DNA of 45,611 nt from a virus (taxonomy: Duplodnaviria; Caudoviricetes), in the IMG/VR virus record IMGVR_UViG_3300037991_002113, positions 1 to 45,611 of that record. One strand, written 5' to 3'. Every line of letters starts with the position of its first letter. Positions within the stretch are counted from its first letter, which is position 1. Below the pieces are notes generated by a model that did not search any database, was not told the DNA's origin, and worked only from the letters and a program-made list of their open reading frames with translations. The translations under genes and the position numbers were made by a program. Positions 100 to 44,924 of this stretch are shown here, one piece after another.

Positions 100-284
100 A
101 GGACTTCGAAGAGTATGATGACATCGAGATCGACGGGGAAGAGTACGTAGTGTATGAACAGAAAGAGTTCAACCCCGGCTCCCCTAAGGAACGTATTGAT
201 GCCCTATGGGATGCAGGTTGGAAACCTACTGATAAGACTAAAGGACATATTAATAAGCTGAAAGAGAGGAAACGGAATGGTTAA
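1..284 (+). CDS. DNA polymerase (family A) N-terminal fragment, 3' end, continued from 44921 across the origin
   Basis: Frame from base 3 reads ESFRTAF...EFNPGSPKERIDALWDAGWKPTDKTKGH...NG-stop(282-284), similar to T7 gp5 FNPSSRDHI...AGWVPT. Confidence 0.9.
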   Translation, partial: ESFRTAFGTKRVELKRCKYRLTKDGSLYGNVRKDFEEYDDIEIDGEEYVVYEQKEFNPGSPKERIDALWDAGWKPTDKTKGHINKLKERKRNG

Positions 285-462
285 TGGTATGTATCTTGAC
301 AATGTGGGCTACTATGGGTACTTCAGAGATGGTCTTGACCGAGGTATGGTATACGAAGAAGGCGGTTGGTGGAGATCAGAGACTCAAGTATCGGCCTTTA
401 ACGCAGAACCCCCTTGCTGTGGGTATGATAGACTTATACTACCTGAGGAGTACTTACTGTGA
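277..462 (+). CDS. small PxEY-tail family protein (ends LILPEEYLL)
   Basis: 61 aa, SD-like GAGG upstream, shared C-terminal motif, GTGA overlap with next ORF. Confidence 0.85.
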   Translation: MVNGMYLDNVGYYGYFRDGLDRGMVYEEGGWWRSETQVSAFNAEPPCCGYDRLILPEEYLL

Positions 463-641
463 GCAAGAAAGGACTGTTCCAAACGAACACCAGCAACAAG
501 AACGTTCACTACCTGTGGGACGGATACACACTTAGGTTTATGGTCACCTCCAGAGGTAAGCATGACTCAAAGTTTGCCTCCACTGAGTACTTTAAAAGAA
601 GAACAAACAAACTTGTGGCACCATTGGAGTACATGACATGA
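459..641 (+). CDS. small PxEY-tail family protein (ends LVAPLEYMT)
   Basis: 60 aa, GTG start overlapping previous stop, GAGGAG SD. Confidence 0.8.
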   Translation: MSKKGLFQTNTSNKNVHYLWDGYTLRFMVTSRGKHDSKFASTEYFKRRTNKLVAPLEYMT

Positions 642-657
642 ACGAAAGGGAATCGCT

Positions 658-852
658 ATGAAAGATGGACTATACAAGAGAGAGATGGTTAGGTACTCCT
701 CGATGTCCTTTGGAGGTGGAAAGCGTTGGAGGCTCTTCGCATTTAGCTGTGGCAGGAAGACGGACCGAGTAACTAACCAGACCCTAAAAGATATTTCACC
801 TATAGTATCAGGTGAAAAGGAACTGAAACTACCATTGGAGTATATGTTATGA
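658..852 (+). CDS. small PxEY-tail family protein (ends LKLPLEYML)
   Basis: 64 aa, N-terminal DGLY motif, shared C-terminal motif. Confidence 0.8.
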   Translation: MKDGLYKREMVRYSSMSFGGGKRWRLFAFSCGRKTDRVTNQTLKDISPIVSGEKELKLPLEYML

Positions 853-871: not shown

Positions 872-1066
872 ATGACAGATGTAGTAGTGAAAGAATTTAA
901 GAACAGCAAAGTCACTTATAAGAAAGATGATAGCTATCGACCTGTAGAGATTTGGGTAAATGACGAGTGGGACGGAGAACAAGCCACTGTATGTCTAGGG
1001 CTAAAGGAACTAGTACGTCTGAAGTATTTCTTAGAGGAATGTATCAAGGACTACTGCGATGGGTAA
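872..1066 (+). CDS. hypothetical protein
   Basis: 64 aa ORF, GGAG upstream, overlaps start of polymerase C-fragment; lacks the PxEY tail. Confidence 0.7.
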   Translation: MTDVVVKEFKNSKVTYKKDDSYRPVEIWVNDEWDGEQATVCLGLKELVRLKYFLEECIKDYCDG

Positions 1067-2078
1067 AGACTTAGATCACTTCAAGAGGTACGGATGGAAG
1101 GTGAATGAAACAAACCTTCAGACACTCCCTGAGACAGCCCCTAAGGCAGCACAAGACCTAGCCCAGTGGCTCACCCTAGAAGGTAGGCGTAGCACCCTTG
1201 AGGAGTGGATAGGCTGCTGCTCTGAGGATGATAGTCGTATCCATGGGAAGTTCTGGCACATCGGGGCTTGGACACACCGTATGGCACACACCAACCCTAA
1301 CCAAGCTAACCCACCTTCAGTGTTCCATGAGGAACCTAAGACAGCAGTGGAGCATGTTAAGGCTAAGTATGATGGGAGGTTCCGTAGTCTACTCCATGTA
1401 CCTGAAGGTAGCTACCTAGTAGGGTGTGATGCTGAGGGTATCCAGCTACGTATTCTAGCCCACTACATGAAGTCAGACGAATACGTTAAGGCTATTGTTG
1501 AGGGCTGTAAGAAAGATGAGACTGATATCCATAACGTTAACAAGAGGGCGCTAGGCTCAGTGTGCAAGGACAGAGACACAGCTAAGACTTTCATCTACGC
1601 TTGGCTCCTAGGTGCAGCATCCCCTAAGATTGCTGAGATACTTGAGAGCACCATACCTCAGGCCAAGACTGCTGAGAATAACTTCCTTACTGCACTGCCT
1701 GAGCTACGTAGAGTTAAGAAGGTACTAGTCCCTCGTGATGCTGGACGTGGGTACTTCACTGGTCTCGACGGACGTAAGGTACCATGTAACAGTGAACACC
1801 TGATGTTGTCTGGGTACCTCCAGAATGGTGAGAGTGTAGTGATGAAGAAGGCTACAGTACAGTGGAAGAAGGACTTGAAGGGGGACATGATCAACTATAA
1901 ACTCTGTGATCTGGTGCACGATGAGTGGCAGACACAGGTAGATGGTACCTACGAAGAGGCTGAGCATGTAGGAAAGGTACAGGCTGAGTCACTACGTAAG
2001 GTTGGAGAAGAACTTGGGGTATACTGCCCCTTAGCAGGGAGTTATGACATTGGCAAAAGCTGGCTTGACACCCATTAA
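1059..2078 (+). CDS. DNA polymerase (family A, T7 gp5-like) C-terminal polymerase fragment
   Basis: RIHG...THRMAH.NPN, motif A GCDAEGIQLR, motif B RDTAKTFIYAWLLG, motif C VHDE. Confidence 0.95.
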   Translation: MGKDLDHFKRYGWKVNETNLQTLPETAPKAAQDLAQWLTLEGRRSTLEEWIGCCSEDDSRIHGKFWHIGAWTHRMAHTNPNQANPPSVFHEEPKTAVEHVKAKYDGRFRSLLHVPEGSYLVGCDAEGIQLRILAHYMKSDEYVKAIVEGCKKDETDIHNVNKRALGSVCKDRDTAKTFIYAWLLGAASPKIAEILESTIPQAKTAENNFLTALPELRRVKKVLVPRDAGRGYFTGLDGRKVPCNSEHLMLSGYLQNGESVVMKKATVQWKKDLKGDMINYKLCDLVHDEWQTQVDGTYEEAEHVGKVQAESLRKVGEELGVYCPLAGSYDIGKSWLDTH

Positions 2079-2238
2079 CGGACTGCACTTAGACTGGTCA
2101 GGGGATTACTTCCAAGTCTTATCTGAGGGATGGAGATGGTCCTATTTATTCGATGAGCAGATGGTCCACACAGAGCCTGAATCAATACTTCCTCCAAAAA
2201 GCGGTGGGGTTGTATTACCAGAGGAGTACATGATGTGA
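2044..2238 (+). CDS. small PxEY-tail family protein (ends VVLPEEYMM)
   Basis: NGLHLDWSGD N-terminal motif plus C-terminal motif; start may be TTG 2065. Confidence 0.8.
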   Translation: MTLAKAGLTPINGLHLDWSGDYFQVLSEGWRWSYLFDEQMVHTEPESILPPKSGGVVLPEEYMM

Positions 2239-2450
2239 AGTGTAAGGGACTTGTGAGATACGTAGACCACGAAGGGGATTTGATGTTAACATATGTCTCT
2301 GATGCAGGATGTGGCGACTGGGCTTACCTAGATAGCTCCCCGGATAGTTGGATTGATTGGATGGGGGACACACCTGACTACTTCATCTCAGACGACGGAG
2401 GGGACATCCACAAAAGTACTTTCCTCCTCCCTGAGGAATATTTGCTGTAA
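2235..2450 (+). CDS. small PxEY-tail family protein (ends FLLPEEYLL)
   Basis: 71 aa, GTGA coupling, YVDHEGDL motif. Confidence 0.85.
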   Translation: MKCKGLVRYVDHEGDLMLTYVSDAGCGDWAYLDSSPDSWIDWMGDTPDYFISDDGGDIHKSTFLLPEEYLL

Positions 2451-2486: not shown

Positions 2487-2573
2487 AAGGTATAGGGGTT
2501 AAGGTATGATGATTAGAATTACTCCTATACTATGAATTAAACCTAAGTGAAACACTATGGAGATTGTCTAAGT

Positions 2574-3074
2574 ATGGCAACAACTGAACACGTAATCAAA
2601 GGTACATTCTCTTGGGCCAAGGTCTTTGAGTCTAACAAAGATGGTAAGAAATACGATGAGGCTTCTAGTTCTTTCGTAGATGACCCTGATGGTGGTGTCT
2701 ATAAGATTGATGTACACCTTGAACTGGATGAGTTTAAGAAGCTCAAGAAGACTGGCTCTAAGGCTCCTCAATACTCTAAGGAAGATGAATCAGGTCTTGA
2801 TGTCGTAACCTTCAAGCGTCCTCACATCAAGCGTGACCGTAATGGTAACATCCTTGACTGGGCTGGTGGTGCACCTAAGGTAGTCGATGAGTTCGGAGAA
2901 CCTTGGGACCTAGAGAAGAATGGTTGGATCAACAACGGTGCTGAAGGTGAGGTAACTATCTCTGTCTACGGTAAGGCACCTATGGTTGGTACTCGTCTCC
3001 TTGAGGTTAAGGTCTTGCGTAACCCTGAGCGTGAGGATGAGTCAACAACTAAACATGATGAGGTGGCGTTCTAA
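2574..3074 (+). CDS. single-stranded DNA-binding protein (T7 gp2.5-like)
   Basis: Position after pol, acidic C-terminus ending in Phe (EREDESTTKHDEVAF); ATG 2574 with GGAG preferred over GTG 2547. Confidence 0.7.
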   Translation: MATTEHVIKGTFSWAKVFESNKDGKKYDEASSSFVDDPDGGVYKIDVHLELDEFKKLKKTGSKAPQYSKEDESGLDVVTFKRPHIKRDRNGNILDWAGGAPKVVDEFGEPWDLEKNGWINNGAEGEVTISVYGKAPMVGTRLLEVKVLRNPEREDESTTKHDEVAF

Positions 3075-35608: not shown

Positions 35609-36115
35609 ATGACTACTGATACAATTCAAAAGTGGGTAGGCAACGCCCGCAACGCTGAGTATGGGTTCTTCAATGCCTGCCTCTATGCCTTGGAACAATT
35701 CCAAGAGAAGAACAACAAGCCACTGTATGCCTTGATTGCCTTCACCAACGGCAAGAAGTTTGGTAGCTATCAGATCGAGCAGGGGTATAAGCTGACCCAA
35801 TTCAATGCACCCTTGAAGCGTGTCCTGAACCACGCCTTGAGTGACGTCAAGTTTACCTTCACCAAGGACGGTAAAGCTAAGGTTAAGGTCGGTGAGAATG
35901 GTGGGGCTAACGCTGATGTCATTCGTGCCATGCGTGAACTGTCCGACCTGCACAAGGGGAAGATTGGTGTGAAGTCTGAACACTTCAAGGAGATGTTCCC
36001 TGCACCTACACCTCAAGCTAAGGAGTTTGATGTTAAGGCATGGGCTGAACGAGCAGCTAAGGCACACCCTGAACAGGTGGAAGCTATGATTGCTGCCCTT
36101 CAGGCACAGCGTTAA
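35609..36115 (+). CDS. early hypothetical protein
   Basis: ~168 aa, core-gene-like codon use; start 35600 or 35609. Confidence 0.8.
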   Translation: MTTDTIQKWVGNARNAEYGFFNACLYALEQFQEKNNKPLYALIAFTNGKKFGSYQIEQGYKLTQFNAPLKRVLNHALSDVKFTFTKDGKAKVKVGENGGANADVIRAMRELSDLHKGKIGVKSEHFKEMFPAPTPQAKEFDVKAWAERAAKAHPEQVEAMIAALQAQR

Positions 36116-36119
36116 GCCA

Positions 36120-36569
36120 ATGAAATATACAATCTTTTCTATTGACAACCCTAACGACTGGCACACGATGGCTAAATTCATGCGTCATGTGGATAGTCTT
36201 AGGGCCTTGTCTAAGCTGAAAGGTGAGGTCATCCAGTGCGTAGGCATGTGGGAAGGGAAGCTTGAGCCTTCCTTCTTGTGTCGTACTGATGACTTCGAAG
36301 ACCATGTCAGGTCTAAGGGGTGGTGTGACAACCAAGACGCAGTGCTCCAAGTAAGTGAGTGCAACAAACAATACGCTCAGTTTCTCTGGCTAGAGACTGG
36401 GCACACTGAGTTTGCAGGTAGCTTGAAGAGTGTCTCTAAGGACACAGCTTTCAAAGAAAACGGGTTCACCTATCGCCCTGACCTTGATACCTATTGGGTC
36501 TTGGTAAGGGGGAACCCTGATACAGTGCCTGAACAAAGAAGCCCATACAGGGCCAGTAACCTAGGTTAG
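36120..36569 (+). CDS. putative S-adenosylmethionine lyase (T3 SAMase-like)
   Basis: G-x-W-EG-x-x-E-x-SF, QDAVL (T3: QDCVL), GSLKSV, GFTY...YW; early position. Confidence 0.65.
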   Translation: MKYTIFSIDNPNDWHTMAKFMRHVDSLRALSKLKGEVIQCVGMWEGKLEPSFLCRTDDFEDHVRSKGWCDNQDAVLQVSECNKQYAQFLWLETGHTEFAGSLKSVSKDTAFKENGFTYRPDLDTYWVLVRGNPDTVPEQRSPYRASNLG

Positions 36570-36651: not shown

Positions 36652-36852
36652 ATGAAGATTAAAACTTGGGATGACATGCCCGCTGGGTCAGTGCTTTACA
36701 AAGACTGGAAAAGGTGGGTTAAATTAACTCATTCCTGTCACATCGTCCCCTCGATGAGCATGTCAGATGTTGGTGGAATGTCAGGCTCTAACCCTTTCGA
36801 TGCCAAGGGTTGGGGTGCATTGAAATATTTTCCCATGCAGTACTTGACATGA
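36652..36852 (+). CDS. small PxEY-tail family protein, variant (ends YFPMQYLT)
   Basis: 66 aa, P at -6 and Y at -3. Confidence 0.75.
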   Translation: MKIKTWDDMPAGSVLYKDWKRWVKLTHSCHIVPSMSMSDVGGMSGSNPFDAKGWGALKYFPMQYLT

Positions 36853-37061
36853 GTGAAGAGACAGGAAAGAGACTAGGGCACTTGGTTCGGGCTGGGCGTT
36901 GTGGGACGTGGTTTAGTTTCCATAAAGGCTGGGACCAAGAGGCTACAGGGGAAACCCAATGTGATTTTTATATCAGGAAGGACATGGTGCTCGGCAGAGG
37001 TGACGGAGGGTATCTCACTAAAGCAAGAGAAATAATTATTCCTCTCCCCTACTTGACATGA
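36849..37061 (+). CDS. small PxEY-tail family protein, variant (ends IIPLPYLT)
   Basis: 70 aa from ATGA-coupled start 36849; P at -6, Y at -3. Confidence 0.7.
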   Translation: MSEETGKRLGHLVRAGRCGTWFSFHKGWDQEATGETQCDFYIRKDMVLGRGDGGYLTKAREIIIPLPYLT

Positions 37062-37082
37062 AGACAAACAGTACTATATATT
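37053..37082 (+). promoter_or_regulatory. sigma70-type promoter
   Basis: TTGACA(37053-37058)-18 nt-TATATT followed by an AT-rich tract. Confidence 0.6.
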
Positions 37083-37174
37083 ATACTTAAGGTATAAGAC
37101 ATATAGTATATATAATACTAAGTATAATACTAGGTGTTATACTAGTAGTGTATACCTAAGGAGGGCCTGATGAA

Positions 37175-37393
37175 ATGCCTAGGAAGAATGACCTACTGGT
37201 ATGGGTCAACGATTGGAGCGGTAACAAATCTCTGTGTAGGCTCAAGGCTGAGATTGACGAGGAAACTTACGATGCTCCTGATTTGACCAGAGGAAACCTA
37301 TCACTATGGCGGAGCCCTGAAATGTGGGCAGAGTCAAGCGGTGGAGCTAAGAAAGACTTCACCTTCGTCTTGCCTAAGGAGTATTCAACATGA
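37175..37393 (+). CDS. small PxEY-tail family protein (ends FVLPKEYST)
   Basis: 72 aa, TAAGGAGG SD, KNDLLVW N-terminus. Confidence 0.85.
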   Translation: MPRKNDLLVWVNDWSGNKSLCRLKAEIDEETYDAPDLTRGNLSLWRSPEMWAESSGGAKKDFTFVLPKEYST

Positions 37394-37548
37394 TTCTGTT
37401 CAGACACAATCTTGGGAGTGAAGTCTTAGCCATAGGTCAGGGAGAGGTGTGTTTCACAAACAAATCCATGGAATGGTCGAGAGGTAAGCTGAAGAACAGT
37501 GCGTATAAGCCTGTCTTCTTGGTGTTACCTAAGGAGTACATGGCATGA
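37390..37548 (+). CDS. small PxEY-tail family protein (ends LVLPKEYMA; 52 aa, not in ORF track)
   Basis: MILFRHNLGSEVLAIGQ...; ATGA overlaps at both ends. Confidence 0.85.
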   Translation: MILFRHNLGSEVLAIGQGEVCFTNKSMEWSRGKLKNSAYKPVFLVLPKEYMA

Positions 37549-37739
37549 AACCACCTACAAACAAGGACAGGTACGATGGGCTGTATGCCCACTATCCTGA
37601 CAGTCTTTCCGCACTGCTTGAGGGAGAGACCTCTGCACTTCTTGGTTACGGTGGTAGTCCTTGGACTTACAGTGAACAAAGGGGTACAGGAAACCTAGGC
37701 AAGCGCAGCCTATGGCTACCCATAGAGTACATGAAATAA
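37545..37739 (+). CDS. small PxEY-tail family protein (ends LWLPIEYMK)
   Basis: 64 aa, DGLY motif. Confidence 0.85.
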   Translation: MKPPTNKDRYDGLYAHYPDSLSALLEGETSALLGYGGSPWTYSEQRGTGNLGKRSLWLPIEYMK

Positions 37740-37769
37740 GAGGAGCAACTTGAGAAAGGAACCTAACCA

Positions 37770-38024
37770 ATGGGACTAATGATTACAGTAGCAATGCCAA
37801 TCGCTACCCTAATCCTAGGGTTTACCTTAGGATACTTCATGTCTGTTAAAGGTGTGAAGGATAGCGTAGAGGCTGGGATGCACATCGGTATGGAGCTAGG
37901 GGCTAATGCTGTAGCTTCACAGTATCTCACACCAGACCACCAACAACAATCAACCTCAAATGAAACTGAATCTAAGGCCATGTCCTATGGCTTTGACTTG
38001 ACAACACCGACAAAAGGAAAGTAA
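37770..38024 (+). CDS. small membrane protein
   Basis: N-terminal TM LMITVAMPIATLILGFTLGYF. Confidence 0.7.
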   Translation: MGLMITVAMPIATLILGFTLGYFMSVKGVKDSVEAGMHIGMELGANAVASQYLTPDHQQQSTSNETESKAMSYGFDLTTPTKGK

Positions 38025-38027
38025 ACT

Positions 38028-39644
38028 ATGACTAAAGAAATCCGTGACGACCTGCTCATCATCCTCGCTCCATTCTGTGGCTGGGACCCTGACCACAAGC
38101 TGAACAAGTACGATGAGGATGAACCTGAGTCTCTCAACCCACCTGTTGACATCCCTCAGGAGGAGATGAAGGAGGCTATCACTCAGTACTTCGAGGGTAC
38201 CTCACTAGGCAAAAAGATGACCAAGGCGTCTGAGTACAAGCACCTCAAGGAAGTCATCGACCACATGCCCAACATCAACGTCATGCTCTGGGCGGATGGT
38301 AAGATCAGCGATGGTGACTTGGTTAGCCTCGTTAAGCAGGGCTTGACACCCATTGATCGCTACCGCTACCCCTTCGAGACTGGCAAAGAGTTCATTGAAG
38401 CATGTGGTGAGACTACTCGTAAGCTCTACCAGATGCGGGAAGAAGGTGTAGGTATGGTTGACCTGACTGGTGTGGTACTCAAGGTACCATCTAAAGGTAA
38501 GCGTGCAGCCATCGACAAACTCTTGGAGTCTGTTGAACTGCCTGACATTGCCTCCATGATTACTCTGTCTAAGTCCAACATCAATGAACTTCAGGCAGCA
38601 CAGAAAGCTGAGGGTCAAGCCAAGGCTGAGGTTGAACGATTGGAGCAGGACCTTAAGCACACCCAAGATGTACTGCGTGACGCCCAGTTTAATGCTGGCG
38701 CCAAGATGGACCTGACCTATGAGGCTGATGGTGAAATCCCTGAGGGTAAGATGGTCTCACGTAAGGCATCTGACATCTGGCCTGACATCGATGGCTTGGA
38801 CTTCGAAGTACCATTCTTTGAGTGGGATGGTGACCACCCTCAAGTGCCAGCTATCGACACAGGGTACATCTTCCGTCCTGACATGCTCAAGTCTGTGCTC
38901 TATGCCTTCGTGTCTAACAAACGTGGGTACTTGCAAGGTCACACAGGCTCAGGTAAGACTACACTCTTGGAGCAGGTAGCTGCACACCTGAACTTCCCAT
39001 TCATCCGTATCAACTTCGACAGTGAGATCACTCGTATGGATTTGATTGGTCGTGATACCTTGGTTGATGGTAAGTCTGAGTTCATTGACGGTATGCTCCC
39101 TCGTGCCATGTCTCAGCCCTGCATCTGTGCCTTCGATGAGATTGACTTCGTCCGTCCCGATGTAGCCTATGTTATGCAAGCTGCACTGGAAGGCAATGGG
39201 CTGCGTATCACTGAGGATGGTGACCGCTTGGTTAAACCTCACCCAATGTTCCGTATGTTTGCCACTGGTAACACGGTAGGTCAAGGGGATGAGGATGGTA
39301 TGTATCAAGGTGCACGTCCACAGTCCATGGCATTCCTTGACCGCTTCACAGTGTGGGTCAACGTGCCTTACATGGATGAGATGGAACGTGGTCAGTTGCT
39401 CCGTGCCAAGTGTCCAAGCCTTACGGGTACTCAGATGGAGGCTATCCTTCAGTTCGTCACTGAGCACATGGCAGCATTCAAAGAGGGTGAGGTAGGCAAA
39501 CCTATGACACCGCGTGGTATGCTCTCCATCGGCGAGGCTACTGCCTTCCTCGGTGATGTACGTAAGGCAATCAAACAGACTGTAACTGATGGCTGTATCG
39601 GCAGTGACAAGGCTATCCTCGAAGGGTTGGCTGATCGTGTATAA
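38028..39644 (+). CDS. MoxR-class AAA+ ATPase, CobS-like, with long N-terminal extension
   Basis: Walker A GHTGSGKT, Walker B CAFDEID, FATGNTVGQGD...AFLDRF. Confidence 0.9.
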   Translation: MTKEIRDDLLIILAPFCGWDPDHKLNKYDEDEPESLNPPVDIPQEEMKEAITQYFEGTSLGKKMTKASEYKHLKEVIDHMPNINVMLWADGKISDGDLVSLVKQGLTPIDRYRYPFETGKEFIEACGETTRKLYQMREEGVGMVDLTGVVLKVPSKGKRAAIDKLLESVELPDIASMITLSKSNINELQAAQKAEGQAKAEVERLEQDLKHTQDVLRDAQFNAGAKMDLTYEADGEIPEGKMVSRKASDIWPDIDGLDFEVPFFEWDGDHPQVPAIDTGYIFRPDMLKSVLYAFVSNKRGYLQGHTGSGKTTLLEQVAAHLNFPFIRINFDSEITRMDLIGRDTLVDGKSEFIDGMLPRAMSQPCICAFDEIDFVRPDVAYVMQAALEGNGLRITEDGDRLVKPHPMFRMFATGNTVGQGDEDGMYQGARPQSMAFLDRFTVWVNVPYMDEMERGQLLRAKCPSLTGTQMEAILQFVTEHMAAFKEGEVGKPMTPRGMLSIGEATAFLGDVRKAIKQTVTDGCIGSDKAILEGLADRV

Positions 39645-39819
39645 AATACTAAAGGATCGCAAAGAAGAGCCTTGGGTCATGGACGTCCATACAAGCCTTG
39701 TAGACAGTATGGAAGGGGGTGGATGGTCCGAGATTTTGACAGGCCATATTACTAGCACTGTCAAATCCCAAGAGGGCTGGAGGCTTCACCTAGCCCTGCC
39801 TAAGGAGTATGCAACGTGA
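39637..39819 (+). CDS. small PxEY-tail family protein (ends LALPKEYAT)
   Basis: 60 aa from GTG 39637 overlapping the end of the AAA+ gene. Confidence 0.8.
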   Translation: MYKILKDRKEEPWVMDVHTSLVDSMEGGGWSEILTGHITSTVKSQEGWRLHLALPKEYAT

Positions 39820-40028
39820 CCATGGAGAGCAGAGCCTTATGGAGGGACAAGGATGGAGACCTTTGGGTACACAACAGGACTGGTCCTAGTTGCGCCTGCT
39901 TCTCCCCCAGAGGGTGGGACTGGGACACAAACTTTGGTGAGGATAGTGGTGGAGGGTGGAGTAGTCTTAGTCACACAGCTAGGCATTTCCAACTAGAGGT
40001 CCTCATCCCAAAGGAATACATGGAGTAA
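39816..40028 (+). CDS. small PxEY-tail family protein (ends VLIPKEYME)
   Basis: 70 aa, WRDKDGDLW motif, GTGA coupling. Confidence 0.85.
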   Translation: MTMESRALWRDKDGDLWVHNRTGPSCACFSPRGWDWDTNFGEDSGGGWSSLSHTARHFQLEVLIPKEYME

Positions 40029-40033
40029 ATGAA

Positions 40034-41911
40034 ATGAAAGTATCTGACTTTGTAAATGAAATGCGTGGCACCAGTGTAGTCTTCGGACGTGAGACTGGTG
40101 TGTACGTAACCTTCGAAGGTGATCAAGCCTATACTGACGGTAAGCGTATCAACCTACCGTCTATGGGTTTGGACAAGACCCTAACATCTAAGCAAGTGAA
40201 GACCATGCGTGGGTATGTAGACCATGAGGCTGGGCACATCCGGCACAGTGACATGCCTCTCATCATGGACTTCTATTCTCGGTGTGGTAACAACGGGAAG
40301 ATGGAACTCAAGGCCCTGCACAACTGCATCGAAGATGTGTGGATGGAACACAAGGTTGTCTCCTGTTACTCAGGCTCCCTTAAGAACTTGGCTCAGACCA
40401 ACGAGTCAGTAGCTGAGGCTGAGGTCGAGTCCTTCAAAGACCCTGAAGCTTTCCTCAAGAAGAAGGGGTGGTCTCAGGACAAGATCACGGAAGCCTTGGC
40501 AATGACACCTAAGCGTGACCTGACTGAGTTCACCGTAGGTAACCTGAGTGCAGCCATCAAGAAGAACAATCCTATGTACTCATCCCGTAAGTTCAATGAG
40601 TTCAAGGAGATGCTTGGCGAGAAGAACAACGAGTGGGCACAGCACTTTATCCCTATGATCTTGGAGTGTAAGAACTCTCAGGATACTATCGACTTGGCTA
40701 TGGATATCTGGAAGATGTTTGAAGACAACAGCCAAGAAGAGTTGGAAGACATGCAGCCTGAGGACTTTGAGCAAGGCAGTGGTGAGCCATTGGAGTCTGT
40801 CGGTGAGCCGGGAGATGAAGAGGTTCAGGAAGGGTACGGTAAAGGCAAGCCCTCTGACTCTAGCGATGGCGAAGGTGAGGGTCAAGGTGTACGTGAGGTC
40901 ATGCCTGAGGACTACCTCCCTAGTGCCGAGGAGATGGTAGGTGAAGCCTTGCGTGGCGAGAACACTGACGGACAGGGCAGTATCGGCAACTGTGGTGATG
41001 GCCCTCTCACTGGTGGGTACAAGGTTGCTACCACTGAGTACGACACAACGTACAAGAAAGGTGGTGACCGTAGCAAAGGTGAGTCCTACGTCTGGGACAT
41101 CATCGAGTCCAGTGACATGTCAAAGCACAATGAGGTTATGTCTCAGATTGCTGGGCCTATCAACGTCATGTCAGGTAAGCTACGCCGTGCACTCCTAGCT
41201 AAGAAGCGTGTTGACCGTGACAGTGGGCGTCAGATCGGCAGGCTGGATAGCAAACGTCTGGTAGCTGCATCCCAAGGGGCTGACAATGTCTTCTACCAAC
41301 GGGTTGATCGCAAGGAAGAGGACACAGCAGTGACTATCCTAGGTGACTTGAGTGGCTCCATGGGTGGGCGCAAGGCTGTAGTCACACGGGACTGTATCGT
41401 AGCCTTGTCTGAGTGTCTCGAAGGTGGGACCATGCCCTTCAAGATTGTAGGGTTCTGTAACAAAGGGTATCCTAAAGACAGTTACTCAGGAAGCTACCAC
41501 CGCTATGAACCTCTTGACACCGTCGTGTTTAAGGACTATACTAAACCTCTTAGGTCTTGCCGTGCAGCAGTGGCTCAGTTTGATGAGGCTGTAGGGGGTA
41601 ACAACTCTGACTATGACTTCATCACACAGGAGATTACTGAACTCAAGAAACGTCCTGAACAACGTAAGGTGCTGTTCGTGCTGAGTGATGGACACCCGGC
41701 ATGTCAATCAGATGCTAGCACCAGTGAACATGTACGTCTGTGCAAGGAAGCTATTGACCAAGCACGTAAGGAAGGGATCGAGTGTGTAGGTATTGGCATC
41801 TGCGATGAGGCAGTCAAGGAAATCTACAAGGACCACGTAGTAGTACATGACGTGAAGGACCTGTCAGCTACGGTGTTCAACAAGCTAACCAATATGCTGG
41901 TAGGAGACTGA
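40034..41911 (+). CDS. CobT-like protein: N-terminal HExxH domain, acidic linker, C-terminal VWA (MIDAS)
   Basis: DHEAGH, NCIED, DLSGSM, VLSDGHP. Confidence 0.9.
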   Translation: MKVSDFVNEMRGTSVVFGRETGVYVTFEGDQAYTDGKRINLPSMGLDKTLTSKQVKTMRGYVDHEAGHIRHSDMPLIMDFYSRCGNNGKMELKALHNCIEDVWMEHKVVSCYSGSLKNLAQTNESVAEAEVESFKDPEAFLKKKGWSQDKITEALAMTPKRDLTEFTVGNLSAAIKKNNPMYSSRKFNEFKEMLGEKNNEWAQHFIPMILECKNSQDTIDLAMDIWKMFEDNSQEELEDMQPEDFEQGSGEPLESVGEPGDEEVQEGYGKGKPSDSSDGEGEGQGVREVMPEDYLPSAEEMVGEALRGENTDGQGSIGNCGDGPLTGGYKVATTEYDTTYKKGGDRSKGESYVWDIIESSDMSKHNEVMSQIAGPINVMSGKLRRALLAKKRVDRDSGRQIGRLDSKRLVAASQGADNVFYQRVDRKEEDTAVTILGDLSGSMGGRKAVVTRDCIVALSECLEGGTMPFKIVGFCNKGYPKDSYSGSYHRYEPLDTVVFKDYTKPLRSCRAAVAQFDEAVGGNNSDYDFITQEITELKKRPEQRKVLFVLSDGHPACQSDASTSEHVRLCKEAIDQARKEGIECVGIGICDEAVKEIYKDHVVVHDVKDLSATVFNKLTNMLVGD

Positions 41912-41915
41912 AGGT

Positions 41916-42062
41916 ATGCTGTATCTTACGAGGTTTGGGGCTGTCGCAACAAAGGATGGGTGGCTATCCTGTGACAATGGCGACGGCTGGCACTATGATC
42001 TTGATGGCAAAGGTATCTTTGTGGTAGAGTCTGTCATCATACCTGAGGAGTACGCACTATGA
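41916..42062 (+). CDS. small PxEY-tail family protein (ends VIIPEEYAL; 48 aa, not in ORF track)
   Basis: MLYLTRFGAVATKDGW...; AGGAG upstream. Confidence 0.85.
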   Translation: MLYLTRFGAVATKDGWLSCDNGDGWHYDLDGKGIFVVESVIIPEEYAL

Positions 42063-42214
42063 TGTACCTTGATGGTGACGGTGACATATATTGGGAGGGT
42101 GGGAGACTCAACTACGCAAGGGTTCCTTCTTATTGGAAACCACCGGTATATTGGAACTCCTTTGAACATAGTAACTACACCAGTATCTTATTACCAGAGG
42201 AGTACATGAAGTGA
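42059..42214 (+). CDS. small PxEY-tail family protein (ends ILLPEEYMK; 51 aa, not in ORF track)
   Basis: MMYLDGDGDIYW...; ATGA/GTGA overlaps. Confidence 0.85.
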   Translation: MMYLDGDGDIYWEGGRLNYARVPSYWKPPVYWNSFEHSNYTSILLPEEYMK

Positions 42215-42417
42215 GATGTAAATGCTGTGACTCAATTAACACACGGTATATCCTAGGTGACTGGTACTGCCCTGAGTGTAGCTCAAGTATCCACCAGACA
42301 ATTAAAGAGGATAAGGACAAGCACTTAGAGGACTGGTTCTATCGTGACCTGAGGAATATTAAAGTGCTTGACGCTGAGGAGGGAGATAGTGAAGATGCCA
42401 GTGAAACGTCCAAGTAA
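42211..42417 (+). CDS. small Zn-ribbon protein
   Basis: CKCC...CPEC. Confidence 0.7.
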   Translation: MRCKCCDSINTRYILGDWYCPECSSSIHQTIKEDKDKHLEDWFYRDLRNIKVLDAEEGDSEDASETSK

Positions 42418-42613
42418 GAATGATCTTCTAGTCTGGTCCTTTGATGATGGTGGACTCTACTCAGGTCTCTACACAGAGGATCACTTGGAGACAGGGCACT
42501 ACTTTCAATCCCTCTGGTGTACCTTTACTCCAGCCCACATGGCCTACACTACAGAGTGGATGTCTAAGAAGAATGATGTCCTTACCATGGTACCCAAGGA
42601 GTACATGACATGA
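42395..42613 (+). CDS. small PxEY-tail family protein (ends TMVPKEYMT)
   Basis: 72 aa from ATG 42395 (GGAG SD), KNDLLVW motif. Confidence 0.85.
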   Translation: MPVKRPSKNDLLVWSFDDGGLYSGLYTEDHLETGHYFQSLWCTFTPAHMAYTTEWMSKKNDVLTMVPKEYMT

Positions 42614-42816
42614 ATATAGGTGCACTATATAAGACTGGGTATGGGTACGGACGTGCCGAAGGAGAGTCGGAGGATGACCCCTTTGAGGTTTTAGACAGAG
42701 GGCTAATCGATTCTGAAGGTTCATGGTGGCGTTCAGACCATTGGGATAGCGTAGCCCCGTCATACTCTAAGAAGAGCTACGAGAAATTTGTACTGCCTGA
42801 GGAGTATCTACTATGA
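42610..42816 (+). CDS. small PxEY-tail family protein (ends FVLPEEYLL)
   Basis: 68 aa, ATGA coupling on both sides. Confidence 0.85.
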   Translation: MNIGALYKTGYGYGRAEGESEDDPFEVLDRGLIDSEGSWWRSDHWDSVAPSYSKKSYEKFVLPEEYLL

Positions 42817-44333
42817 GTGGGGACCGTCCTGTCAAGGTACACCAACCCTGCCCTAACCCTGACTGTGGGTCCAGCGATGCCTACTCAGAGTGGGCCAATG
42901 GTGCAGGGTACTGCCACTCATGTGAGACTAAGTTCCCTCCCCCTAGAGATGAGACATACACTAAGAGAGAACCTATGGAGAAATTGAAGACTGAGCTACG
43001 GACCTACCGTGGCATCCAACCCAAGGTGGTTGAGAAGTATGGTGTGAAGACTGCACTGAGTGAGGCAGGAGAGGAGACACAACGTGTTTATGAATACCCT
43101 TCGGGTACTAAGTATCGTTATCTGGATAAGAAGTCCTTTAGCTGGGCGTCAGGTGGAAAACCTACAACTTTATTCGGAATGGATAAATTCAATGCTGGTT
43201 CCAGCAAGTCTATCACTATTGTAGAGGGGGAAGACGATGCTCTCGCTGCTTACTACATGCTCGGTGGACAGCACCCTGTTGTCTCCCTCCCCTCAGGTAC
43301 AATCTCAGAGGAACTTCTTAAAGGTTGCTTTGATTACTTGGATGCATTCAAAGAGATTGTAGTCGCCACTGACAACGATAAGGTAGGGGACAAGGCGGCT
43401 ACCCGCATCTCCTTGACCTTCCCTAACAAGACATACCGTGTGTCTCTGACTAAACACAAGGATGCATGTGACTACCTAGCTGCTGGTGATAAGGCTGACT
43501 TCAAGTTTGCTTGGATCAACCGTAAGAAGTACGTACCTGATAACATCCTCAACACACCGGATCAGTTCATCGATCTCTTCGATAACACACCTGAGCATCA
43601 GTACACACCAACAGGTATCGTAGACCTTGACAGTAAAATCCTAGGCATTATGAAGGGGATGCTGACCGTAGTTAAAGCACCTACTGGTATCGGCAAGACT
43701 GAGTTCATGCGGTACCTAGAGTATAAGTTCCTCAAAGATGGGGTACGCTTGGCTGCTTGGCACCTTGAAGAGACTAAGCTCCGGTCACTCTTAGGTCTGG
43801 TATCCTACGAAGGTGACGACAACCTGACACGTAAGGACCTGATCGAAGACAAAGGGAAGCAGGAGGAAGTCAAGGCTGCTATCACTACACTGACAGGGGA
43901 TGAGAACTTCTACCAGTTCTTCCTTCGCGATGGGGATGGCACTGAGGAACTCATTGATCAGATCAGGTACTTTGCCACTGTGTGTGAGGTGGACTACATC
44001 TTCTTCGAGCCTATCCAAGATGTCTTGGGCAACAGTGAGGAACTCCTAGCACAGTTGGCTATCCGTTTGTCTAAGCTGGCCGCTGAGTTGAATGTGGGTA
44101 TCGTGACCATCGCCCATACAAATGAAGACAATGAGATTAAGTACTGTCGTATGATTGGGCAACGTGCTGCTGTTATCATGTCATTGGACCGTGACCCTGA
44201 TGCACCAACTGAAGAAGAACGTAACGTAACTAAGATCAGAGTCGAGAAGAATAGACCTTGTTCTCACGTAGGTTGGGGAGGTATGATGAAGTTCGACCCT
44301 GAGACTTTTACCATGGAGGAATATTCAGGATGA
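42813..44333 (+). CDS. DNA primase-helicase (T7 gp4-like)
   Basis: Zn finger CPNPDC...CHSC, TOPRIM EGEDD and DND, Walker A APTGIGKT, KNR. Confidence 0.95.
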   Translation: MSGDRPVKVHQPCPNPDCGSSDAYSEWANGAGYCHSCETKFPPPRDETYTKREPMEKLKTELRTYRGIQPKVVEKYGVKTALSEAGEETQRVYEYPSGTKYRYLDKKSFSWASGGKPTTLFGMDKFNAGSSKSITIVEGEDDALAAYYMLGGQHPVVSLPSGTISEELLKGCFDYLDAFKEIVVATDNDKVGDKAATRISLTFPNKTYRVSLTKHKDACDYLAAGDKADFKFAWINRKKYVPDNILNTPDQFIDLFDNTPEHQYTPTGIVDLDSKILGIMKGMLTVVKAPTGIGKTEFMRYLEYKFLKDGVRLAAWHLEETKLRSLLGLVSYEGDDNLTRKDLIEDKGKQEEVKAAITTLTGDENFYQFFLRDGDGTEELIDQIRYFATVCEVDYIFFEPIQDVLGNSEELLAQLAIRLSKLAAELNVGIVTIAHTNEDNEIKYCRMIGQRAAVIMSLDRDPDAPTEEERNVTKIRVEKNRPCSHVGWGGMMKFDPETFTMEEYSG

Positions 44334-44536
44334 CTGAGTTCGAGTTCGAAGGATGGTATTGGTGTAACGATGGGGAGGCGATATACTTCAAAGGTTCTTC
44401 AGACAAGTACTACTACACCTATGGAGTAAGAGAGGAATCTGTAGGCTACGGAGGTGTAACTAAGGACGATATTAAAAAACACATAGGGGACGAATGTTGT
44501 GCGTTTGGATATCTACCTAAGGAGTATTTAACATGA
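44330..44536 (+). CDS. small PxEY-tail family protein (ends GYLPKEYLT)
   Basis: 68 aa, ATGA coupling. Confidence 0.85.
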   Translation: MTEFEFEGWYWCNDGEAIYFKGSSDKYYYTYGVREESVGYGGVTKDDIKKHIGDECCAFGYLPKEYLT

Positions 44537-44736
44537 CTAGCAAATACAAAGAGTATAGCCTAGGTGTCTGTAGCAACGAAGGAGTCAACATCTTCTCTAG
44601 GGCTGAAGACCACTATGTCTACCTGTCTAAAGATTCTCTAGGGGAGTGGCATTCTGGGCTTCATACTCATGGACTGGATATGTCTGAGTATTACGGAGAG
44701 GGTAAGATGGTTCTCCCAGCGGAGTATGCCTCATGA
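44533..44736 (+). CDS. small PxEY-tail family protein (ends MVLPAEYAS)
   Basis: 67 aa, ATGA coupling. Confidence 0.85.
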   Translation: MTSKYKEYSLGVCSNEGVNIFSRAEDHYVYLSKDSLGEWHSGLHTHGLDMSEYYGEGKMVLPAEYAS

Positions 44737-44924
44737 AAGGAGACATGAGGAATGGCCTGTACCTAGATGAACTGGGATACATTCTACACATCAAAAAACC
44801 TTTGCTTTACTTAGCGGGCTATAAAGACCAGTGGTGGGGTTACATCACTGCTGACCGTGGAGATGATATGATGGGAAGAGAGAGGGCTGAAACTCTTATA
44901 CTACCTGAGGAGTACATCCTATGA
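44733..44924 (+). CDS. small PxEY-tail family protein (ends LILPEEYIL)
   Basis: 63 aa, NGLYLDELGY motif. Confidence 0.85.
   Translation: MKGDMRNGLYLDELGYILHIKKPLLYLAGYKDQWWGYITADRGDDMMGRERAETLILPEEYIL

Follow-up and report, generated by a model that had tools for sequence, protein, structure and literature searches.

Short acidic and aromatic peptides at the C-termini of bacterial SSB (the SSB tip) and of the T7 proteins gp2.5 and gp4 dock several proteins on one partner; these tails end with the aromatic residue, whose free carboxylate is important. The internal proteins of phage T4 share an N-terminal capsid-targeting sequence, which is cleaved, sits on hypervariable bodies and serves packaging, and in prochlorosin-type precursors one conserved leader is combined with many hypervariable cores and one processing enzyme. 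Small open reading frames (ORFs) are also exchanged as modules: hyperplastic regions with PeSL-mediated modular shuffling of small ORFs in T4-type phages were reportedly described by Arbiol and colleagues in 2010. Here we analyse 19 small ORFs that share a C-terminal peptide in a viral genome of 45,611 bases (IMG/VR record IMGVR_UViG_3300037991_002113; 'the window' denotes this whole stretch of DNA), and we compare them with these systems and with the CobS-CobT pair, of which the window encodes homologues. CobS, and in many cases CobT as well, ranks with the most frequent 'auxiliary metabolic' genes that marine phages carry. According to two papers on the solved cobaltochelatase, CobT is an adaptor between the CobS ring and its client CobN, with the side that bears the MIDAS (metal-ion-dependent adhesion site) facing the client; the same papers cite CbbQ-CbbO and NorQ-NorD as other pairs of a MoxR-type AAA+ ATPase and a VWA protein (10.64898/2026.07.21.739949; 10.64898/2026.10.09.757910).

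Our overall reading, which we hold tentatively and at somewhat less than an even chance, is that the 19 ORFs are real, translationally chained and fast-evolving genes of an undescribed family of early proteins, 50–80 residues long, in CobS/CobT-carrying marine podophages, and that their common ending is likely a docking tag with, as we predict, one partner per phage. All 19 ORFs reported by an earlier sequence-only reading are present (Table 1), and together they amount to 1211 codons, about 8% of the genome. Every member has Pro six residues and Tyr three residues before the stop (−6 and −3) and Leu, Ile, Val, Ala or Phe at −7, and 17 of the 19 have Glu at −4, the two exceptions being marked in Table 1. 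Three starts are ambiguous: the GTG at 39637 has an alternative ATG at 39589, and TTG codons at 42368 and 36810 could serve the ORFs assigned to 42395 and 36849. When ORFs of at least 30 residues were re-called in all six frames, 19 of 391 ended in P..Y..$ (where $ is the end of the protein) and 18 in the strict form of the motif, and all 19 were the family members on the + strand of the early arm. The identical test found this ending in 0 of 429 ORFs of Roseobacter phage CRP-6 and in 0 of 377 ORFs of Lentibacter phage ICBM2. Nor is the motif equally common at the ends of unrelated coupled genes, as it occurs in 0 of the 14 large ORFs tiled along the + arm. At the DNA level, the word CCNNNGGAGTAY has 14 copies on the + strand, each within a tail, and 0 on the − strand. 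The middles of the proteins are mostly unalignable, as had been claimed; blastp with tail-less bodies detects only 3 pairs. The window represents a whole phage genome that is circularly permuted and whose ends overlap by 99 bp, and the virus collection lists it with direct terminal repeats and 100% completeness. The description of some members as lying across the origin was therefore correct.

The evidence that these are fast-evolving genes comes from codon usage and from strain comparison. A codon model trained on the long genes scores the family frame best in 18 of the 19 ORFs, with a signal weaker than in the long genes themselves, and Trp and Tyr are enriched 2.9-fold and 1.9-fold. For comparison we used L097, a metagenome contig of a strain whose primase is 98% identical in protein and whose flanking DNA is 91% identical. 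Three orthologous pairs can be aligned; their ratios of nonsynonymous to synonymous substitution (dN/dS) lie between 0.29 and 0.50, with dN of about 0.19–0.21 and indels in frame, compared with 0.05 for the VWA domain, 0.03 for the primase and 0.08 for a 68-residue Zn-ribbon-like ORF outside the family. The bodies change at about 15 times the rate of adjacent core genes. Two of the three pairs agree in all of the last nine residues, and the remaining pair has a single difference there (Ala to Val at −2).

Close strains differ by the insertion, loss or replacement of entire units, and the breakpoints lie at the tails. L097 has an extra unit after its ortholog of the 41916 ORF and another after the primase, while the body of the 42395 ORF is replaced by unrelated sequence and the 44330 unit is a mosaic that keeps its start and tail around a replaced middle; homology resumes at the tail Pro codon in each case. 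Strain contigs roughly 90–93% identical to the window likewise skip or replace whole units: 209 letters are skipped at the joint 36840>37050, where 12 letters are shared, and 159 at 37393>37553, while at 42609>42831 the sequence is replaced by 233 other letters. These contigs also hold extra units ending in ...EY[IV]E-stop. An exhaustive profile search (A2) returned only strain-level variants of one subfamily (P0008, P0009, P0011 and P0013), whose bodies differ and which all end in LPEEYLL, and two spurious repeat proteins. We saw no sign of a diversity-generating retroelement: there is no reverse transcriptase among the annotated large ORFs, and no long direct repeat matches any body.

To what extent does the tail reflect a peptide, and to what extent a DNA site? 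In a nucleotide profile of the 19 tails, codons −9, −8 and −7 have T in the second position in 16, 14 and 18 cases, with first and third positions near random. This 3-periodic conservation, which lies upstream of the ribosome-binding site, indicates that the constraint is 'any hydrophobic residue', not a DNA word. The synonymous variation that had been noted is real: the Pro codon begins with CC in 19/19 and ends in T, A or C in 10, 6 and 3 members, and the Tyr codon begins with TA in 19/19 and ends in C in 12 and in T in 7. The motif also persists in members with a TAA stop and no overlapping start, as claimed; three such members keep P-x-E-Y, and in them the GGAG core decays to GAGGAA, ATAGAG and AAGGAA. 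The RAG-GAG codons at −5/−4 are the ribosome-binding site of the next gene, and, in line with the caveat attached to the original proposal, this site accounts for x-E and perhaps the start of the Tyr codon, but not for the Pro or the hydrophobic run. In the relatives described below, the acidic codon is commonly GAA or GAT (in L136, GAA in 6 tails and GAG in 4) and the x codon is often not purine-rich, which again places the constraint on the peptide. RNAalifold predicts 0 pairs across the 19 tails (51 nt each), and the idea of an RNA hairpin at the junction was rejected. Together, the periodicity, the relatives' codons and the lack of a consensus RNA structure support selection on the peptide and not only on a DNA site: the tail is doubly coded, and it is at the peptide level that Pro, hydrophobic run and aromatic residue are retained.

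These results bear directly on the idea that the junction is only a ribosome-binding site, spacer, overlapping start and recombination site, and that the ORFs are near-neutral filler kept open against polarity. RAGGAG with its 8-nt spacer to ATGA would indeed explain x-E and part of the Tyr codon, and breakpoints at the tails, unalignable bodies and a codon bias weaker than that of long genes also speak for it. But this idea leaves unexplained the periodicity from −9 to −7 and the free third positions of Pro and Tyr, the survival of the motif where the ribosome-binding site is lost or where GAA, GAT or non-purine x codons are used, dN/dS values of 0.3–0.5 rather than about 1, and the enrichment of Trp and Tyr, and the absence of predicted RNA pairs also speaks against it. 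We regard it as already disfavoured and very improbable.

The same DNA has a clear role in expression. At 16 of the 19 stops the stop overlaps the next start (ATGA or GTGA) and RAGGAG lies 8 nt upstream, so that the ribosome-binding site is inside the upstream ORF, as at the junctions of translationally coupled operons. Because the tail DNA contains the next gene's ribosome-binding site and overlapping start, a unit can be inserted without silencing the genes downstream. The sequence-only reading had only half seen these further roles of the tail DNA, which supplies the ribosome-binding site and start of the next gene and also the breakpoints for the gain, loss and swap of units between strains. 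Such overlaps raise the possibility of a timing or quality signal read by the host, either a C-terminal degron by which a host protease limits the lifetime of early proteins or a nascent-peptide element that acts within the ribosome at termination and favours re-initiation at the overlapping start. The position of the tail at or near the C-terminus fits a signal of this kind, lineage-specific spelling could track different hosts, and known arrest peptides commonly feature Pro and aromatic residues. However, the final one or two residues vary here, whereas the known tags of the ClpX type rely on them; in the relative L180 the motif is followed by 2–6 more residues and so is not anchored to the C-terminus or the stop; in these operons, large genes that lack the motif are coupled to downstream genes all the same; and the three members that lack an overlapping start keep it. 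A host-read signal therefore appears improbable to us. Two homologous mini-ORFs of 7 codons (MNERESL at 638-660 and MNGSECK at 849-874) follow the tails that end at 641 and 852; each begins within the ATGA overlap and ends with a stop that overlaps the next real start, which leaves the translational chain unbroken. At these two junctions DNA similarity extends beyond the stop.

The family had been thought to be confined to this genome, and this must be corrected: about 12 related podophage lineages carry 1–16 such ORFs at the same positions, that is, after cobS, around cobT, around the primase, and between and after the polymerase halves. The tail is spelled hydrophobic-P-x-E-F-[FLM]-E in L038/L134 and L045; hydrophobic-P-x-E-F-[FLM]-[STER] in GenBank PQ867845.1, where 14 annotated hypothetical proteins carry it; P-x-E-F-L-I in L033; P-x-E-L-[ILM], one residue shorter, in L136 and L147; P-x-E-M-L in L061; P-K-E-Y-L in L143/L150; and P-x-E-F followed by 2–6 more residues in L180. 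L188 has weaker versions, and L142 is a further carrier. The residue after the Glu is uniform within a genome: Tyr in 19/19 here, Phe in 13/13 in L038 and Met in 6/6 in L061. The strict pattern P..Y..$ misses these relatives because they have F, L or M in place of Y, and L180 needs a looser end anchor; in 82 related loci it matched 24 of 8555 ORFs, mostly antisense, and nothing family-like. A homology search with the 19-member alignment (A1) returned only 5 proteins, all the window's own, and a scan of viral contigs for the exact pattern gave 11 singletons and no cluster. At the other end of the proteins, G-hydrophobic-[YWF] occurs within the first 17 residues of 20 of 95 members, compared with 127 of 5305 decoy ORFs, and four PQ867845.1 proteins begin with MKL[YH][DE]G[LI]Y. 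A motif kept across about 12 lineages, with a uniform spelling in each, fits one common partner per phage; we put the chance that the tag is read by such a partner close to even, though a little below it.

A scan for contigs with two tails found only L094 and L095, which belong to another phage type with DUF2800, an Enc34-like single-stranded DNA-binding protein and a family A polymerase. They carry two tandem Trp-rich paralogs of 76 and 70 residues (5786-6225 in L094), which end in PAEYDL and PVEYDL and lie just before the polymerase. Only the tails of these paralogs align to the 19-member alignment, and the resemblance is limited to the tail.

A candidate for the partner emerges from gene content. 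Every family carrier found has CobS/CobT-like (MoxR AAA+/VWA) genes. Among distinct primase loci scored with a relaxed tail motif, the 15 CobT-positive loci have it in 111 of 596 small + strand ORFs and in 3 of 714 on the − strand, whereas the 101 CobT-negative loci have it in 8 of 2344 on the + strand and 10 of 3046 on the −, with at most one match per locus. L162, a sister to the carrier L061, is without CobS/CobT and without the family. In this data set, then, the family implies CobS/CobT; the reverse fails. The window's CobT-like protein matches a solved CobT chain at E 3e-52 and, by sequence, is a true CobT homologue with its VWA domain and MIDAS motif intact, the MIDAS D-x-S-x-S being invariant in 6/6 aligned CobT-like proteins. 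The usual ligand of a MIDAS is an exposed acidic residue of the client. A candidate for this ligand is the tail Glu/Asp, conserved in 17/19 members here and in the large majority in relatives, its exposure being suggested only by low-confidence models. We predict that the CobS/CobT-like MoxR AAA+/VWA pair is the best candidate partner, although on the whole this identification is doubtful.

The association also bears on a packaging address, in which the tail would send the small proteins into the capsid to be co-injected, like the T4 capsid-targeting sequence or encapsulin cargo peptides. These share the logic of a constant tag, specific to the lineage, on variable cargo. All members here, however, belong to the early/replication arm, and the structural genes lie on the other strand; no link to a prohead protease is seen; and nothing ties the family to capsid genes, whereas it does track CobS/CobT. 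We give this explanation next to no weight.

Residues 64-73 of the CobT-like protein read HEAGHxRHxD, a zincin-like HExxH sequence that is invariant in 6/6 aligned carriers and also present in CRP-810. At the same position L143 and L150 have HESAHVLYTD, and solved CobT, which lacks the motif, aligns DSMALRQARHN. A metallopeptidase-like site on a phage 'CobT' is unexpected. A derivation of the name 'cobavirus' from cobT was dropped, as the text of the paper concerned contains neither cobT nor cobS.

From these observations we propose that the units are swappable, self-expressing cassettes that combine variable small proteins with a constant scaffold and a constant C-terminal tag. The common ending consists of three hydrophobic residues, P-x-E and then an aromatic or hydrophobic residue, and on this reading its junction of about 25 nt does three jobs: it tags the end of the protein, starts translation of the next gene and supplies homology for the gain, loss or swap of units. 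The variable middle may be the working surface on a small beta scaffold, closed by an N-terminal G-hydrophobic-Y/W strand and a C-terminal hydrophobic strand, so that the exposed P-x-E-aromatic end could dock on the common partner. If that partner is the CobT-like VWA protein, the conserved tail Glu would occupy its MIDAS. A role in host takeover or counter-defence is a guess from position, size and turnover. In its fullest form the proposal is that phage 'cobS/cobT' are not vitamin-B12 helpers but a MoxR/VWA machine that reads a C-terminal address on swappable hypervariable microproteins, with the tag co-evolving with its reader and new clients plugging in as self-expressing cassettes; this strong form we consider distinctly unlikely.

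The main rival is a purely structural tail: the ending would be the last beta-strand and capping turn of one small divergent fold, there would be no common partner, and each member would act through its own variable surface. Its conservation would come from core-building termini and from the next gene's ribosome-binding site and start, and the uniform spelling from lineage expansion or gene conversion. AlphaFold2 models of the 42610 ORF (19 paralogs; predicted local distance difference test, pLDDT, 51.0) and of L045:4269 (32 members; pLDDT 64.9) are all-beta and of low confidence, and each has its last strand at the hydrophobic run, which P-x-E-aromatic follows as a short turn. The original idea that the hydrophobic residues before the Pro belong to a free tail is thus probably wrong, these low-confidence models making them the last strand of the fold instead; taken as no more than a hint, they suggest a structural role for the hydrophobic residues and an exposed position for the final five or six residues. 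The enriched N-terminal motif fits a common fold as well, Y, F, L and M typically stand in for one another where a residue is buried, recombination breakpoints at the tails would favour homogenization, and dual coding with a ribosome-binding site and start would slow the divergence of the tails. Yet a buried position in 10–19 unalignable paralogs should mix Y, F, L and M, and instead it is uniform within each genome; the synonymous differences among tails speak against recent conversion; and a structural tail gives no reason for joint presence and absence with CobS/CobT. The low model confidence counts against this rival too, and so does the lack of a fold match: Foldseek found none at E <= 0.001, the best being 0.92 among solved structures in the PDB and 0.06 among viral models in BFVD. 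The ESM Atlas's own model had a pLDDT of 0.37, and no lead there exceeded 0.8. On balance we see a purely structural tail without a common reader as a real contender, if on the unlikely side.

Homology searches add little. The 19 members gave nothing below E 0.1 against PHROGs and a best value of 0.022 against Pfam, where every matched family was matched by one member alone; 40 members from 10 lineages gave one PHROG match at 0.0043 and Pfam matches by single members only, and a PDB profile search with these 40 gave nothing. DUF551 (PF04448), considered for its W-x-P-L-P ending, had 0 matches at E <= 10 in a six-frame search of the whole genome and was discarded. No description of the family was found in the literature, supplements not covered.

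Several observations weigh against a tag with a common reader, and against CobS/CobT as that reader. The uniform spelling within each genome could instead reflect expansion within a lineage, or gene conversion where the tails recombine, and the hydrophobic run may be purely structural, as the strand placed there in both low-confidence models suggests. Iterating a hidden Markov model on tail-less bodies against 5305 decoys links only the trio 277/42610/44733, and cross-lineage blastp of bodies gives 11 weak pairs, the best at 5e-4, with no positional orthology across lineages established; without homology of the bodies across the family, a single fold is not established. The primase/helicase of the window ends in ...TMEEYSG, so that its EEY is as far from the stop as in the family, where relatives have ...TFTLxE...; part of the x-E-aromatic pattern therefore reflects the coding of a ribosome-binding site and spacer. 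With respect to CobS/CobT, a tree-based count leaves 3 independent contrasts, all concordant (sign test p 0.25). The window's primase/helicase is a mosaic allele whose nearest relatives are CobT-less and CRP-6-like, while both polymerase halves, endonuclease VII, the SSB-like protein and the phosphoesterase are closest to CobS/CobT carriers; the true transitions are therefore nearer to one gain and two losses. In other phage types CobS/CobT occurs without the family: of 26 CobT-related viral loci that lack this primase and polymerase, one has a single match and the other 25 have none, and CRP-810 has a CobT-type protein but no family. Weighing both sides, we retain the docking tag read by one partner per phage as our preferred interpretation. 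The interpretation given by the sequence-only reading is partly upheld: peptide selection, real fast-evolving genes and a motif kept in about 12 lineages support it, and confinement to one genome and a free hydrophobic tail have been given up.

The early/replication genes occupy the + strand arm from about 35600 across the origin to about 9200, and podovirus structural genes the − strand arm at 9678-34043. In addition to the genes in Table 1, the + arm encodes an SSB-like protein, a Cas4-type exonuclease, endonuclease VII, a phosphoesterase, MazG and a ribonucleotide reductase. Ranked by primase, the closest phages with a name are Roseobacter phage CRP-6 (52%), the metagenomic Cobavirinae genome PQ867845.1 (47%), CRP-5 and Lentibacter phage ICBM2. 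The S-adenosylmethionine lyase family ORF is likely an anti-restriction gene, and homologues are present in several relatives. Three family members (277, 459, 658) and a 64-residue ORF outside the family (872-1066) lie between the polymerase halves; the polymerase is split without inserts in ICBM2 and is a single ORF in CRP-6. Helicase C-termini across 77 relatives keep ...TFTLxE... and then a hydrophobic or aromatic residue near the stop (here TFTMEEYSG), and the SSB-like protein (2547-3074) ends in DEVAF; both C-termini may be replisome docking tails of the T7 kind. The Zn-ribbon-like ORF outside the family (CCDS...CPEC, 42211-42417) sits among family members without their tail; its conservation is strong, and L033, L188 and PQ867845.1 contain ORFs like it. 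The AT-rich spacer 37053-37174 contains several TATAATACT-like repeats and a promoter-like TTGACA-18-TATATT (11/12), whose TTGACA is embedded in the Y-L-T codons at the tail of the 36849 ORF. Upstream of 37175 lies a canonical TAAGGAGG; a putative 'vestigial tail' in the spacer 37062-37174 was rejected, as it is this canonical TAAGGAGG site.

Table 1. Family members and neighbouring genes in the window, with the C-terminal tail of each member.
Feature	Coordinates	Strand	Length (residues)	Tail	Remarks
Member	36652..36852	+	66	YFPMQYLT	Gln replaces Glu
Member	36849..37061	+	70	IIPLPYLT	Pro replaces Glu; unit absent in related strains
Member	37175..37393	+	72	VLPKEYST	Body resembles 42395 ORF
Member	37390..37548	+	52	VLPKEYMA	Entire unit missing in one strain
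Member	37545..37739	+	64	WLPIEYMK	TAA stop, no overlapping start
Member	39637..39819	+	60	ALPKEYAT	GTG start (alternative ATG 39589)
Member	39816..40028	+	70	LIPKEYME	TAA stop
Member	41916..42062	+	48	IIPEEYAL	dN/dS 0.49 vs L097 ortholog
Member	42059..42214	+	51	LLPEEYMK	dN/dS 0.29 vs L097
Member	42395..42613	+	72	MVPKEYMT	Body swapped for unrelated sequence in L097
Member	42610..42816	+	68	VLPEEYLL	dN/dS 0.50 vs L097; replaced by 233 other letters in one strain
Member	44330..44536	+	68	YLPKEYLT	Mosaic in L097: first ~20 residues and tail kept, middle replaced
Member	44533..44736	+	67	VLPAEYAS	
Member	44733..44924	+	63	ILPEEYIL	
Member	277..462	+	61	ILPEEYLL	First of three between polymerase halves
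Member	459..641	+	60	VAPLEYMT	
Member	658..852	+	64	KLPLEYML	
Member	2044..2238	+	64	VLPEEYMM	
Member	2235..2450	+	71	LLPEEYLL	TAA stop; last gene of cluster
S-adenosylmethionine lyase family ORF	36090-36569		159		Early; PF23780, 30.5 bits vs cut-off 28
CobS-like MoxR-type AAA+ ATPase	38028..39644	+	538		AAA_5, phrog_249; candidate part of tag reader
CobT-like adaptor	40034..41911	+	625		CobT N-domain with HEAGHxRHxD; VWA domain, MIDAS D438-x-S-x-S; candidate tag reader
Primase/helicase	42813-44333	+			
DNA polymerase in two ORFs (exonuclease part and polymerase part)	44921-45611/1-284 and 1059-2078	+			

These results have implications for both the locus and the CobS/CobT question. The locus is a compact means of maintaining a large arsenal of small proteins that can be renewed rapidly: every unit brings with it the ribosome-binding site and start of the gene that follows, which allows insertion, loss and exchange at a junction of roughly 25 nt without polar effects, and the protein's constant part is encoded at this junction too. 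The family is a concrete and countable candidate set of clients that appears and disappears together with CobS/CobT in one phage group, and thus makes the infection role of these genes testable. In PQ867845.1, the one GenBank record examined that carries the family, the members are annotated only as hypothetical proteins. If the tag-and-reader interpretation were true, it would be an undescribed phage mechanism.

Comparison with the systems introduced at the outset shows likenesses and differences. Like the prochlorosin-type precursors, the family has many paralogs per genome in which a constant recognition part is joined to a hypervariable part, implying one reader. However, its constant part is made up of the last 6–9 residues, no enzyme for modification was identified, and the members resemble small, folded beta domains. 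As in T4 internal proteins, a single short peptide stays constant on small phage proteins that are otherwise unrelated and are exchanged rapidly, but the peptide is C-terminal, on early genes and present in 19 copies, which is not the T4 arrangement. As in the hyperplastic regions of T4-type phages, small ORFs between core genes are exchanged at short conserved junctions that carry expression signals; here, in contrast to PeSL, the junction is inside the coding sequence, translated and under selection at the peptide level, and the exchanged units are one family. The tails differ from the SSB tip and T7 gp2.5 in that the aromatic residue is at −3 in 19/19 and the last two residues vary; in relatives the aromatic residue is at −2, −3 or further in (up to 7 from the end, in L180), and an invariant Pro and a hydrophobic strand precede it. 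The closest comparison is with the CobS-CobT-CobN cobaltochelatase, since the window encodes true homologues of its MoxR-type AAA+ and VWA components, the latter with MIDAS intact. In contrast to the cobaltochelatase, the window encodes no CobN, the phage CobT-like proteins carry the invariant HEAGHxRHxD that solved CobT is without, and the proposed clients are 3–19 tiny variable proteins with a common C-terminal peptide.

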